A program made the translations under genes and the position numbers. The notes under the pieces were generated by a model, which was not told the origin of the DNA, did not search any database, and saw only the letters and a program-made list of their open reading frames with translations. From a virus (Duplodnaviria; Heunggongvirae; Uroviricota; Caudoviricetes): a DNA stretch of 49,775 nt. The DNA lies in IMG/VR virus record IMGVR_UViG_2630968800_000001. The stretch is one strand, 5' to 3'. This document shows positions 1 through 49,775 of this stretch, one piece after another (position 1 is the first letter of the stretch; each line of letters begins with the position of its first letter).

Positions 1-561
1 TCAAAACTGAAAGCGCATCCAGGCAAAGTACACATTGCCATTGTTGTAGGTACCCGGAATGTAGGTCATCTGAAAAGTCACTGGGCCATAACCCACGGAG
101 GCCAATGGCAGTAGAACCGGGAGAGGGATGTAATTCCAGTTATCGCGTGCCGTTACGCCAGCGGTGAATCCCAGACCTAAATGAAAATTTTCATCCGCCA
201 GCGGTCGCCAGGTACTTTCCCATCCGTATCCGGCAATCGGTTCCCATTTGTTCCACGAGTCCTTAAATGCCATGGCATACAGGCCATGCCAGTTTCCTTT
301 TTCATCCCAACGCGACAGGCCAAAACCGCCACCCCACGGTCGCTCGTTATAGCGATCGGTTTTTTCTTTGTCGTAAGCGAAACGTGCATGCCAGGTGATG
401 GCAGGAATATATAAATCATAATGTTCAGGCTGTTGCCAGGTTTGTGCAATATTTTCTCTAAACGTTGTCATCCTCTCATCTGCGTTAGCAAAAACTTTAC
501 CAACGCTGATTAACTGAATAAAAACAAAGGAAAAGATAGCGACATATTTACTCACGTTCAT
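1..561 (-). CDS. pagP: lipid A palmitoyltransferase PagP (CrcA)
   Basis: ORF translation from internal Met ([14 protein letters not shown]...YFAWMRFQF, 186 aa) recognised as PagP; ATG at 559-561, stop at 1-3. Confidence 0.93.
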
Positions 562-1149
562 TTGTGACCATAAAACATTTATCAAAAATCTACTACTAGC
601 ATAGCAAAGCTACAATTAACATAACCTTAATAGACCCAACATAAAGAATAATCTGAATAGCTGCTCTATTTATTTCCGCTTGTTCAAGTTAAATATTTCC
701 GCGCATCGATTAAAGATGATGCGTCGTTTTCTGCGATGGGAATAGTCAAAAAAGAAAAACCAAGTCTTTTTTGATGACAAAATGCAATCAAGGAAAAATT
801 ATTTTATTTTTTTAACGAGATACAACAATCATCTTAACGAAGTATATAATATATATCGTCAACCCATGCTCATATTAGATTATTTTTTGAGCGCACAGCC
901 GCAGCTAACACCATTGCAATTAACAAATTTGCATCAATCCACCATCAATTTACACACATTATTATGTGATAATTGCCAACCGCTAAATATGCGTTTTGTT
1001 ATCTATGTATAAAAACAGCAACTTCAATGTCTTAATGGCAGTTTTTCTTGATTTTAATCAGCATTCATCGCCAATTTATTGGGCATATTTTTTCCTTAAG
1101 CTTTAGGAAGTTTTTATTATTTACTTTGGGCCTGGAGACAGGAAAAATT

Positions 1150-2535
1150 ATGCTGACATTCATTGAACTCCTTATTGGGGTTGTGGTTATTGTGGGTGTG
1201 GCTCGCTACATCATTAAAGGGTATTCCGCCACTGGTGTGTTATTTGTCGGTGGCCTGTTATTGCTGATTATCAGTGCCATTATGGGGCACAAAGTGTTAC
1301 CGTCCAGCCAGGCTTCAACAGGCTACAGCGCCACGGATATCGTTGAATACGTTAAAATATTACTAATGAGCCGCGGCGGCGACCTCGGCATGATGATTAT
1401 GATGCTGTGTGGCTTTGCCGCTTACATGACCCATATCGGCGCGAATGATATGGTGGTCAAGCTGGCGTCAAAACCATTGCAGTATATTAACTCCCCTTAC
1501 CTGCTGATGATTGCCGCCTATTTTGTTGCTTGTCTGATGTCACTGGCCGTCTCTTCCGCAACCGGTCTGGGTGTTTTGCTGATGGCAACCCTGTTTCCGG
1601 TGATGGTAAACGTTGGTATCAGTCGTGGCGCAGCAGCTGCCATTTGTGCCTCCCCGGCGGCGATTATTCTCGCACCGACTTCAGGGGATGTGGTGCTGGC
1701 GGCGCAGGCTTCCGAAATGTCGCTGATTGACTTCGCCTTCAAAACGACGCTGCCTATCTCAATTGCTGCAATTATCGGCATGGCGATCGCCCACTTCTTC
1801 TGGCAACGTTATCTGGATAAAAAAGAGCACATCTCTCATGAAATGTTAGATGTCAGTGAAATCACCACCACTGCCCCCGCGTTTTATGCCATTTTGCCGT
1901 TCACGCCGATCATCGGTGTACTGATTTTTGACGGTAAATGGGGTCCGCAATTACACATCATCACTATTCTGGTGATTTGTATGCTGATTGCCTCCATTCT
2001 GGAGTTCCTCCGCAGCTTTAATACCCAGAAAGTTTTCTCTGGTCTGGAAGTGGCTTATCGCGGGATGGCAGATGCGTTTGCTAACGTGGTGATGCTGCTG
2101 GTTGCCGCTGGGGTATTCGCTCAGGGGCTTAGCACCATCGGCTTTATTCAAAGTCTGATTTCTATCGCTACCTCGTTTGGTTCGGCGAGTATCATCCTGA
2201 TGCTGGTATTGGTGATTCTGACCATGCTGGCGGCAGTCACGACCGGTTCAGGCAATGCGCCGTTTTATGCGTTTGTTGAGATGATCCCGAAACTGGCGCA
2301 CTCTTCCGGCATTAACCCGGCGTATTTGACTATCCCGATGCTGCAGGCGTCAAACCTGGGTCGTACCCTATCACCCGTTTCTGGCGTAGTCGTTGCGGTT
2401 GCCGGGATGGCGAAAATCTCACCATTTGAAGTCGTAAAACGCACCTCGGTGCCGGTGCTTGTTGGGCTAGTGATTGTTATCGTTGCTACAGAGCTGATGG
2501 TGCCAGGAACGGCAGCAGCGGTCACAGGCAAGTAA
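1150..2535 (+). CDS. dcuC: anaerobic C4-dicarboxylate transporter DcuC
   Basis: 461-aa polytopic membrane protein starting MLTFIELLIGVV..., recognised as DcuC; ATG at 1150 inside the longer track ORF. Confidence 0.93.
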   Translation: MLTFIELLIGVVVIVGVARYIIKGYSATGVLFVGGLLLLIISAIMGHKVLPSSQASTGYSATDIVEYVKILLMSRGGDLGMMIMMLCGFAAYMTHIGANDMVVKLASKPLQYINSPYLLMIAAYFVACLMSLAVSSATGLGVLLMATLFPVMVNVGISRGAAAAICASPAAIILAPTSGDVVLAAQASEMSLIDFAFKTTLPISIAAIIGMAIAHFFWQRYLDKKEHISHEMLDVSEITTTAPAFYAILPFTPIIGVLIFDGKWGPQLHIITILVICMLIASILEFLRSFNTQKVFSGLEVAYRGMADAFANVVMLLVAAGVFAQGLSTIGFIQSLISIATSFGSASIILMLVLVILTMLAAVTTGSGNAPFYAFVEMIPKLAHSSGINPAYLTIPMLQASNLGRTLSPVSGVVVAVAGMAKISPFEVVKRTSVPVLVGLVIVIVATELMVPGTAAAVTGK

Positions 2536-2543
2536 ATAGTAAT

Positions 2544-2569
2544 GCCGGAGGCAAGTTTCCTCCGGCTTT
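2544..2569. terminator. bidirectional stem-loop between convergent dcuC and dpiA
   Basis: GCCGGAGG-caagttt-CCTCCGGC hairpin followed by TTTA, lying between the two stop codons. Confidence 0.55.
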
Positions 2570-2575
2570 ATCATG

Positions 2576-2917
2576 TCACCCACTGTGGTATATGCGTTGT
2601 GGTCTGCCAACTTTGCCGTGAACAATTTCAGCAATAATCAGATGGCGGCTGGCGCAATATTCAAGATAACGCCTGGCAGTGGTGCGGCTGATGGTCAGTG
2701 CCTGCGCCACCGTTTCTGCCGTATGTTGCACACCAGGCTCTTTAAACAGTTTTCGCACCGCGTTTAGCGTCAAGGGGTCAATGCCGGTCGGCAGTTCGTC
2801 TTTGGGTTCACCGCGAGCATAGGCATTAAACATCTCATCAATTTGCTTCTGGCTGGCGCTATCAATACTTTCCAGCATATGTTTACGCTGGCGGAAACGG
2901 GTTAGCGTTTGCCCCAG
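2576..2917 (-). pseudogene. dpiA: response regulator DpiA (CitB), C-terminal 113 codons only
   Basis: Translation ...RFRQRKHMLESIDSASQ...GRPQRIYHSG matches the DpiA C-terminal half; homology stops at 2917 where the Mu-type terminus begins. Confidence 0.88.
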
Positions 2918-3254
2918 TGTATTGATTCACTTGAAGTACGAAAAAACCGGGAGAACATTGGATTATTCGGGATCTGATGGGATTAGATTTGGTGGGGCTT
3001 GCAAGCCTGTAGTACAAATTTTAGGCGTTAACCAATGAAACGCGAAAGATAGTAAAAAATTGCTTTTGTTTCATTGAAAAAACGAAAAACAAAAACACTA
3101 TAAATCATTTCAATCATAGCTTCAAAAAACGTTCAAAACCGATAACAACCAGGCTGTCACCAAATGACTCATATCACAAATCAGCTCATGCCGTTTAGGT
3201 ATGTTACATGTGTGATTATGTGAGGTGAAGTATGTTTTAGCTGGCTCATGGTTG

Positions 3255-48774: not shown

Positions 48775-48791
48775 CTTTAAAAAAACGCGCC
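48775..48791 (-). promoter_or_regulatory. MxiE-box-like motif upstream of ipaH
   Basis: Minus-strand GGCGCGTTTTTTTAAAG matches consensus GTATCGTTTTTTTANAG at 14/17, 59 nt upstream of the ipaH ATG. Confidence 0.45.
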
Positions 48792-48804
48792 TGTAAATAG
48801 TTAA

Positions 48805-48894
48805 GAACAGGAAGAACTGTTGGGGATGTGGCTGGCCGAAAATGAAGGGGTGAAGTTCTGGCTCAATGTGCTGACTGAACTGAAAAAACGCGGT
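48805..48894 (+). pseudogene. IS256-family (mutator-type) transposase relic, ~30 codons
   Basis: EQEELLGMWLAENEGVKFWLNVLTELKKRG matches the conserved internal segment of IS256-family transposases; no IS ends or remainder. Confidence 0.6.
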
Positions 48895-49012
48895 TGGTCG
48901 CCCTACCTTTTCATCAAGCCAGTAGTCTGCCCACCACAGCATCATTTCTCTGCGCTTATCGAGATACTGAGCATGGTTGTAAATTCAGCTAACCCAGTGC
49001 GTTGACAAAAAA

Positions 49013-49047
49013 TTAGCGCAAGAGGACAAAAAATCACCTTGCGCTAA
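49013..49047 (-). terminator. sib / tI-like hairpin of the lambda b-region
   Basis: TTAGCGCAAG-15 nt-CTTGCGCTAA stem followed on the minus strand by a T-run; matches the lambda sequence just left of attP as recalled. Confidence 0.55.
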
Positions 49048-49215
49048 TGCTCTGTATCAGGTCACTAATACCATCTAAGTGGTTGATTCATAGTGACTGG
49101 ATATGTTGTGTTTTGCAGTATTATGCAGTCTATTTTTTAAGCTAAATGTATTATAATGCATTGATATTAATGATTTTTACTGTTTCTCGGTCAGCTTTTT
49201 TATACTAACTTGAGC
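49034..49215. other. prophage attR (lambda attP P arm + core + bacterial B' arm)
   Basis: ...CAGGTCACTAATACCATCTAAGT...TGTTTCTCGGTCAGC-GCTTTTTTATACTAA-CTTGAGCGAAACG; core at 49194-49208. Confidence 0.85.
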
Positions 49216-49298
49216 GAAACGGGAAGGTAAAAAGACAAAAAGTTGTTTTTAATACCTTTAAGTGATACCAGATGGCATTGCGCCATCTGGCAGAGTGA

Positions 49299-49775
49299 TT
49301 AACTAAACATCGCGGTAATCGATGCGCTTGCCAGAGAGTGGAAATGAACGTTAAACCCGACCATCGCGCCGCTGGCTCCTTCATCGACATCAATACGCTC
49401 TACATCCAGCGCGTGAACGGTAAAAATGTAGCGATGGGTTTCGCCTTTCGGCGGCGCTGCGCCATCGTATCCGGTTTTACCAAAATCGGTACGCGTCTGC
49501 AAAACGCCGTCTGGCATTGCTACCAGACCAGAGCCAAACCCTTGCGGTAATACGCGGGTATCAGCGGGTAAATTAACAACTACCCAGTGCCACCAGCCGG
49601 AGCCGGTTGGCGCATCCGGGTCGTAGCAGGTGACAACAAAACTTTTCGTTCCCGCAGGAACATCATCCCACGCCAGATGCGGTGAAATATTATCGCCATC
49701 GTAACCCATGCCGTTAAAGACATGACGATGCGGCAACTTATCGCCATCGCGCAGATCGTTACTGATGAGTTTCAT
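49299..49775 (-). CDS. ybhB: PEBP-family (kinase-inhibitor-like) protein YbhB
   Basis: 158-aa ORF MKLISNDLRDGDKLPHRHVFNGMGYDGDNISPHLAWDDVPAGTKSF... recognised as YbhB; gene adjacent to the lambda attachment site in E. coli K-12. Confidence 0.88.
   Translation of the reverse strand: MKLISNDLRDGDKLPHRHVFNGMGYDGDNISPHLAWDDVPAGTKSFVVTCYDPDAPTGSGWWHWVVVNLPADTRVLPQGFGSGLVAMPDGVLQTRTDFGKTGYDGAAPPKGETHRYIFTVHALDVERIDVDEGASGAMVGFNVHFHSLASASITAMFS

Follow-up and report, generated by a model that had tools for sequence, protein, structure and literature searches.

A ~137-kb inversion in the Shigella flexneri chromosome with a probably split Mu-like prophage and a ybhA/pgl prophage at its junctions

Transposition of phage Mu is recognized by canonical left (L) and right (R) ends, a 5-bp duplication of the target site and the gene order c-ner-A. 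In Escherichia coli a chromosomal inversion mediated by transposition of IS1 was reportedly described by Badia et al. in 1998 in J Biol Chem. Inversions bounded by insertion sequences (IS) are a recognized hallmark of Shigella genomes (Nie et al. 2006, PMC1550401; Seferbekova et al. 2021, PMC8072062). The stretch of DNA analyzed here, termed the window, is the whole of the 49,775-nucleotide IMG/VR virus record IMGVR_UViG_2630968800_000001 and corresponds to approximately 683,357-733,131 of Shigella flexneri 2a G1663 (CP007037.1; strain name from PMC9455713), with 100% identity over the compared stretches 1-15781 and 15501-25500. The window contains one end of a large chromosomal inversion, which very probably took place between a point inside a Mu-like prophage in dpiA and an IS1 in the integrase gene of a prophage located between ybhA and pgl, with the joint in the window subsequently reworked into a patchwork by IS600 and IS911.

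The two chromosomal flanks of the window are placed far apart in E. coli K-12 and are directed oppositely. BLASTN against MG1655 segments aligns window 1-2917 with NC_000913.3 657117->654201 on the reverse strand (98.8% identity) and window 49194-49775 with K-12 807328-807909 on the forward strand (98.1% identity). These matches, taken with the strands annotated in K-12 (dpiA and pagP plus, dcuC and ybhB minus), mean that the left flank is inverted and the right flank is direct. The flank breakpoints are 153 kb apart in K-12. An inverted pagP-dcuC-dpiA' flank and a direct attR-ybhB flank, separated by about 150 kb in K-12, had been claimed in the original prediction from the letters of the window, and both the orientations and the distance are borne out; the K-12 strands that it assumed agree with the annotation. 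The flank features are as follows.

1-2917, minus strand: inverted K-12 backbone, the right-hand end of the ~137-kb inverted block
1-561, minus strand: pagP, left flank, matching K-12
1150-2535, plus strand: dcuC, left flank, matching K-12
2576-2917, minus strand: the 3' 342 bp of dpiA, left flank, matching K-12
49299-49775, minus strand: ybhB, in the K-12 orientation

The same inverted order continues to the left of the window in CP007037.1, where dacA...cspE is found.

The inverted backbone ends within dpiA at the left end of a Mu-like prophage, with the following features.

2913-2917: CCCAG, one copy of the 5-bp Mu target-site duplication (K-12 654201-654205, CTGGG on the K-12 plus strand)
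2918-5778, plus strand: left 2.86 kb of the Mu-like prophage, comprising the L end, c, ner and a truncated A
3255-3764, minus strand: c repressor, in the Mu left part
about 3927-4172, plus strand: ner, in the Mu left part
4147-5781: transposase A, in the Mu left part, 544 of 663 amino acids, with its stop codon from IS600

The canonical Mu L end, TGTATTGATTCACTTGAAGTACGAAAAAA, is read in the sequence from position 2918, and the left end 5'-TGTATTGATTCACTTGAAGTACGAAAAA followed by the c repressor, ner and the A transposase defines the element as Mu-type. The truncated A product has the Pfam domains HTH_Tnp_Mu_1/2, DDE_2 and Mu-transpos_C, and at the DNA level the left part as a whole is 96-98% identical to Mu-like prophages, among them those of E. 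coli W and BW2952. The A open reading frame stops right at the IS600 boundary, with the TGA lying in the first bases of IS600. The truncated transposase (4147-5781) is encoded in CP007037.1; the G1663 annotation treats the 544-amino acid product as a protein, whereas most other records list a pseudogene.

The other end of the Mu-like prophage is found in other S. flexneri genomes. In JARGEV010000001.1 and CP026810.1 the right end ...cgtttttcgtgcgccgcttca is followed by CCCAG and the 5' part of dpiA, its last base being K-12 654205, so that an R end reading ...CGTTTTTCGTGCGCCGCTTCA abuts CCCAG and dpiA 5'. The dpiA 3' part in the window starts at K-12 654201 and reads CCCAG/TGTATTG. The two halves of dpiA share the 5 bp of K-12 654201-654205 with each half still on its own Mu end, and this overlap is the hallmark of a single Mu insertion in dpiA. 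A single inserted Mu was thus probably split at a later time, with one half now at each end of the inverted block. The surviving Mu sequence amounts to the left 2.86 kb and about 1.65 kb at the right, 137 kb apart, and the two stubs have no overlap, being c-ner-A' on the left and tail-fiber'-com-mom on the right. A protein search with a DpiA N-terminal fragment for this reciprocal Mu joint returned only frameshift alleles, and the 127-amino acid fragment in CP026810.1 was missed by it.

The reciprocal, left junction of the inversion is present in Sf8401 and many other S. flexneri genomes with the order acrZ-modA-modB-modC-ybhA-int'(237 amino acids)-IS1-citC-citD-citE-citF-citX-citG-citT-rna-rnk...ahpC-dsbG-ybdO, in which the mod/ybhA side and the cit side have opposite K-12 orientation. 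This junction was reached via the loci of the Shigella alleles of CitG, YbhA and ModC, all three of which converge on it. BLAST of one such locus gives ybhA and ybhA/pgl prophage sequence up to position 44298 followed by reversed K-12 cit sequence. The junction retains the Mu right end in JARGEV010000001.1 and CP026810.1, where IS1 is followed by a tail-fiber fragment, com, mom, the Mu R end, CCCAG, dpiA 5', dpiB and citC. Deletions adjacent to IS1 are graded at this joint: some strains have the endpoint in Mu, others in dpiB and others upstream of citC. The two reciprocal junctions thus join the same distant regions in opposite relative orientation. The distance from junction to junction is 137 kb, measured in Sf8401 and in CP044152.1, the right-hand joint of which is identical to that of the window; in K-12 the distance from dpiA to ybhA is 143 kb, and the inverted block equals K-12 654.2-797.8 kb. 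To the left of the block, at ~0.52-0.54 Mb, 2457T and most strains are collinear with K-12 over ent-cstA-ybdL-(IS911)-ybdN'-ybdO-dsbG-ahpC.

The original prediction had proposed a large inversion relative to K-12 with mobile elements at its ends, and the left junction was found in the opposite orientation that this implies. One end of the inversion is tied to a mobile element in dpiA, as proposed, with the Mu L end and the shared duplication both seen. The breakpoints themselves differ from those proposed: dpiA was cut by an ordinary Mu insertion with a 5-bp duplication and the inversion breakpoint is inside Mu, and the second breakpoint is located not in the prophage at att-lambda but at the IS1 in the integrase gene of the ybhA/pgl prophage, at about K-12 797.8 kb.

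The ybhA/pgl prophage is also represented within the window by an inverted block of head genes.

7043-16541, minus strand: inverted fragment of the ybhA/pgl prophage, 99.4% identical to the intact prophages in FDAARGOS_943 and 944. By Pfam, its genes are the Rz 3' part, a DedA-like gene, a 254-amino acid protein, a PBSX-type terminase (interrupted by IS2), a DUF1073 portal, a Mu-F-like protein, DUF2213, a cement protein, a DUF2184 major capsid protein and a truncated STY1053-like gene
12787-14117, minus strand: IS2 in the terminase gene, a simple insertion with the 5-bp duplication ATTGC

FDAARGOS_943 and 944, which are ipaH-positive and filed as E. coli, have the complete prophage between ybhA and pgl, with int beside ybhA and ipaHb beside pgl. 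The collinear order in FDAARGOS_943 is ybhA-(ybhA/pgl prophage)-pgl-ybhD-ybhH-ybhI-ybhJ-ybhC-(att-lambda prophage with ipaHa)-ybhB, and in both genomes the orientation of the head block relative to ybhB is opposite to that in the window. Since the block is found in the prophage at ybhA/pgl, it is not part of the att-lambda prophage. It had originally been read as the part of the att-lambda prophage carried along by the inversion; it is in fact the Rz-3'/terminase/portal/capsid segment of the ybhA/pgl prophage. The same IS2 insertion is present in FDAARGOS_943 and absent in FDAARGOS_944, and its occurrence in both the window and FDAARGOS_943 indicates it is older than the S. flexneri rearrangements.

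The IS1 of the left junction is found in the integrase gene in genomes where the ybhA/pgl prophage is otherwise continuous. The order int'-IS1-AAA_24-Gam-RecE occurs in CP054892, CP045522 and CAJFAP010000001.1, and YdaE-IS1'-int' occurs in CP024470. The presence of the int'-IS1 joint in genomes with an unbroken prophage means that the IS1 was there before the inversion. In a provirus of the same type (IMGVR_UViG_2877285697_000008) three IS911 copies scramble the lysis and head region at sites that differ from those in S. flexneri, and the prophage family is a recurrent IS911 target.

Three IS copies are placed at the joints on the right-hand side of the inversion.

5779-7042, plus strand: IS600 copy 1, from Mu A' to the ybhA/pgl head block, with no target duplication (TAT left, ATT right)
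16542-17790, plus strand: IS911, with its left inverted repeat (IRL) abutting the Rz 3' part of the ybhA/pgl prophage and its right inverted repeat (IRR) abutting the DnaC-like gene, with no target duplication (TTT versus GAC)
23648-24911, plus strand: IS600 copy 2, between a truncated Rz and a 5'-truncated nu1, with no target duplication (GGG versus AAC)

The IS911 is the point of the switch from inverted to direct orientation. The two IS600 copies are 99.3% identical in a self-BLAST, and matches in E. coli records carry an IS600-family annotation. As a control for target duplications, the IS2 has ATTGC on both sides, whereas the IS copies at the joints have no duplication of their own; the absence of duplications at IS600 copy 1, IS911 and IS600 copy 2 indicates that these are recombination or deletion joints rather than simple insertions. 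IS600 copy 2 stands in place of 2.5 kb that is present in the prophage of enteroinvasive E. coli (EIEC) VL46, and its interpretation as a simple insertion is ruled out by this missing sequence together with the lack of a duplication. A 176-bp exact inverted repeat (16366-16541 and 23471-23646) was also considered as a mediator of an inversion and was ruled out; it is the Rz 3' part shared by the two prophages, cut at opposite ends by IS911 in one (on the left) and by IS600 in the other (on the right).

The remainder of the window is derived from the prophage at att-lambda.

17791-23647, plus strand: middle segment of the lambdoid prophage, 99.4% identical to the EIEC VL46 prophage, with DnaC-like, DnaB-like, NinH, Q, four tRNAs, holin, a 209-amino acid protein, lysozyme and Rz without its 3' end
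21199-21509: tRNA cluster downstream of Q, with four genes (CAT, Arg-TCT, Thr-TGT and Gly-TCC)
24912-46773, plus strand: lambda-like late region, nu1' and A through J, lom, tail fiber and DUF4376
46953-48716, minus strand: ipaH, encoding a type III secretion system effector and E3 ubiquitin ligase of the IpaHa/IpaH0722 type, matching the FDAARGOS_943 region annotated ipaHa
49194-49208, plus strand: 15-bp lambda att core (attR), an exact GCTTTTTTATACTAA, with 0.01 matches expected by chance

At two loci of other Shigella genomes ybhC-int'-ninB...LvrA-DnaC-DnaB-Q-lysis(-heads) is contiguous, so the segment 17791-23647 is native to the att-lambda prophage. The late region has 98.6% identity to the prophage beside ybhB in FDAARGOS_943. 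The core GCTTTTTTATACTAA is located at the prophage/chromosome boundary next to ybhB, as for lambda-type integration, and as it sits exactly where K-12 homology resumes (49194) the right flank is a true attR. No attL with int beside ybhC was found on the same prophage; ybhC-int' is placed elsewhere in CP007037.1, where pgl-ybhD-ybhH-ybhI-ybhJ-ybhC-int' of the att-lambda prophage occupies 889,833-911,659 in K-12 orientation. Beside it are ipaHb, a DUF4376 remnant, IS600-RecE'-IS600 and the early region of the ybhA/pgl prophage. The halves of the att-lambda prophage in G1663 are therefore 160-180 kb apart with the attL half to the right of the attR half, and the shift of pgl-ybhC and attL is a second large displacement in CP007037.1. 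A broken att-lambda prophage had been implied by the original prediction, and it is indeed broken, at the IS911 (16542-17790) and at IS600 copy 2 (23648-24911), but these breaks stem from events other than the inversion.

The CAT tRNA is called Met by ARAGORN and Ile in the annotation of related records, and the same set of four tRNAs also occurs in the ybhA/pgl prophage. The ~480 bp between ipaH and the att core (48717-49193) has no long open reading frame and corresponds to fragments of transposase and hypothetical genes in the FDAARGOS_943 annotation. In EIEC VL46 (NZ_CM177010.1 1697000-1746500) a near-identical lambdoid ipaH prophage is placed between mlrA (~2.2 Mb in K-12) and yecD-aspS (~1.95 Mb), which has the appearance of a further rearrangement tied to a prophage, in a separate lineage.

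The arrangement is very probably accounted for by a series of events. The ancestor would have had a Mu-like phage in dpiA, with its 5-bp duplication, and two ipaH prophages ~150 kb downstream, one between ybhA and pgl and the other at att-lambda between ybhC and ybhB. An inversion would then have flipped the segment from inside Mu to the IS1 in the integrase gene of the ybhA/pgl prophage (K-12 654.2-797.8 kb and ~137 kb in S. flexneri), giving the order ...citC (dpiB dpiA5' MuR-mom-com)-IS1-int' ybhA modCBA gal...pagP dcuC dpiA3'-MuL c ner A'-IS600.... The left joint probably formed at the pre-existing IS1, either by recombination with a second IS1 inside Mu or by replicative transposition of IS1 into Mu; both routes are putative, since the right joint now has IS600 and no IS1. 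Later IS600 and IS911 events would consist of recombination, deletion of adjacent sequence and one or more events of transposase type, leaving the right joint as a patchwork of the Mu left end, IS600, the inverted head fragment of the ybhA/pgl prophage, IS911, 5.9 kb of att-lambda prophage from replication to lysis, IS600, and the late genes with ipaH and attR. The remaining ybhA/pgl prophage, pgl-ybhC and the attL end of the att-lambda prophage would have moved ~160-180 kb rightwards. The order of these later events is likewise a matter of reasoning from the present joints.

Several observations weigh against this account. The same IS in inverted orientation is not found at the two ends of the block, which have IS1 on the left and IS600 on the right, and homologous recombination between IS copies is compatible with the joints only if later deletions are assumed. 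The left junction was read in S. flexneri genomes other than G1663, one of them with the identical right-hand arrangement, and the interior of the block appears collinear as judged from both of its ends, its length and a 75.6-kb draft contig. A model with two inversions, which predicted the joints Mu A 3'-IS600, IS600 with the tail genes of the ybhA/pgl prophage, and IS911 with the Rz 5' part of that prophage, was dropped once the IS1-int' left junction was found; exact-pattern scans of IMG/VR gave none of its partner joints. Every IMG/VR locus with a Mu A C-terminus belongs to an intact Mu-like prophage from another strain, and among the loci of the ybhA/pgl prophage sheath no S. flexneri partner was found.

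The inversion may instead have been made by Mu itself, if a Mu resident in the ybhA/pgl prophage near the integrase gene had undergone intramolecular replicative transposition into dpiA and the resulting copies had been trimmed by IS1 and IS600 deletions. The topology is exactly as this would predict: dpiA 5' lies on Mu R and the inverted dpiA 3' on Mu L, and each joint has a copy of the 5-bp duplication, the two copies being inverted relative to one another. The graded IS1-adjacent deletions at the left joint make heavy trimming plausible. Such an event predicts two inverted Mu copies, in the form dpiA5'/R...L/...inverted.../L...R/..., whereas only L and R stubs that do not overlap are found; one split copy and two trimmed copies look alike in this respect, and two copies are not required. 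Genomes with an unbroken ybhA/pgl prophage have no Mu beside it, no Mu A C-terminus or Mu B is located next to IS600 among IMG/VR proviruses, and the left joint falls exactly at an int'-IS1 boundary that is older than the inversion, which points to IS1 as the agent. We consider Mu as the agent unlikely for these reasons, though if true this would be one of the few documented cases in which phage Mu has remodeled a wild pathogen's chromosome.

The version first proposed, in which one inversion ran from dpiA to the att-lambda prophage and carried the head block along, fits the orientation of the flanks and the breakage of the att-lambda prophage inside the window. It is very improbable, and indeed refuted, given that the reciprocal junction is at ybhA-int' of the ybhA/pgl prophage and not at ybhC/attL, that the head block belongs to the ybhA/pgl prophage, and that pgl-ybhC-attL-int' is outside the inverted block, to the right of the window and in K-12 orientation. 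Scarcely credible is a misjoining of contigs via repeated IS copies, even with three 1.25-kb IS elements, which are classic misjoin sites, located at the joints, as the same joints occur in many independently sequenced complete genomes (including Sf8401, CP012735, CP044152 and NCTC strains), and IMG/VR contigs extending across IS600 show them too. Records of the Mu repressor protein span 6687 blocks, over 100 of which are complete genomes, Sf8401 among them, and the dpiA'-Mu-IS600-head block joint was present in all 10 of the 10 distinct places returned for it; this constancy means that the arrangement is not an assembly artifact. The S. flexneri lineage is fixed for it.

Strains differ in the sequence beyond the IS911 at the Rz end of the head block. 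The form in the window is shared by G1663, CP012735 and CP044152, many other S. flexneri have an extra IS911-toprim5'-IS600-(ybhA/pgl prophage) fragment at this joint, and at least four arrangements of the joint occur among strains. A further inversion of ~160 kb between this IS911 and a copy in ybdM is found in CP102230.1, CP054913.1, UGYS01000001.1 and UAUS01000007.1 (the last two being NCTC strains), which returns the 137-kb block to the K-12 orientation and inverts ybdN...dpiB instead. Both halves of a toprim (replication protein P-like) gene are located on IS911 IRR ends and share a 3-bp TTG (UGYS01000001.1 locus 4968-6217 and a related locus 1449-2698). Placement of the halves on two IRR ends cannot arise by homologous recombination between IS copies and suggests at least one transposase event using two IRR ends. 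The toprim/IS911 joints did not fit a simple history of IS911 and IS600 events. In some S. flexneri (four loci, including CP054913.1) a group II intron reverse transcriptase (RVT_1/GIIM, 502 amino acids) is present in or beside the IS911 at this joint.

These findings explain the scrambled appearance of dpiA, the Mu remnant, the two ipaH prophages and att-lambda in a major pathogen. Citrate regulation by dpiA/dpiB is destroyed in S. flexneri, and the ipaH0722-type effector gene is stranded on the right prophage half, for which excision is no longer possible. The variable joints could serve as lineage markers. No gene-level account of this inversion, of the split Mu or of the ybhA/pgl partner was found in PMC1550401 or PMC8072062, a comparison in which the Sf301 and 2457T genome papers were not covered, so an earlier description is possible. 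The kind of event and the genome are already known, the rearrangement is of an ordinary type in Shigella, and the current understanding, in which inversions driven by IS and prophages are well documented in Shigella genome evolution, is unchanged. What is added is the exact anatomy, namely a split Mu with a shared duplication, a prophage partner at ybhA/pgl, and joints formed by IS1, IS600 and IS911.

The locus resembles the IS-mediated inversions of Shigella in being a large intra-replichore inversion relative to K-12, in having bounds formed by IS and prophage remnants, and in the further IS-bounded differences between strains. Closely related are the ipaH prophages at att-lambda and ybhA/pgl in FDAARGOS_943 and 944 and that of VL46, which share their late genes, ipaH cargo and attR core with the locus and show the order before rearrangement, whereas in S. 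flexneri both prophages are dismembered with their pieces spread over ~230 kb. With Mu transposition the locus shares the L and R ends, the 5-bp duplication, the c-ner-A order and a topology compatible with replicative inversion; only the two stubs survive, and nothing requires Mu as the agent. The inversion ascribed to IS1 transposition in E. coli is matched in having IS1 at a large-inversion junction with the old flank kept (int'-IS1) and a new flank joined (the Mu tail-fiber region), and the principal difference is at the end in the window, where in place of a second IS1 with the expected 9-bp duplication there is IS600.

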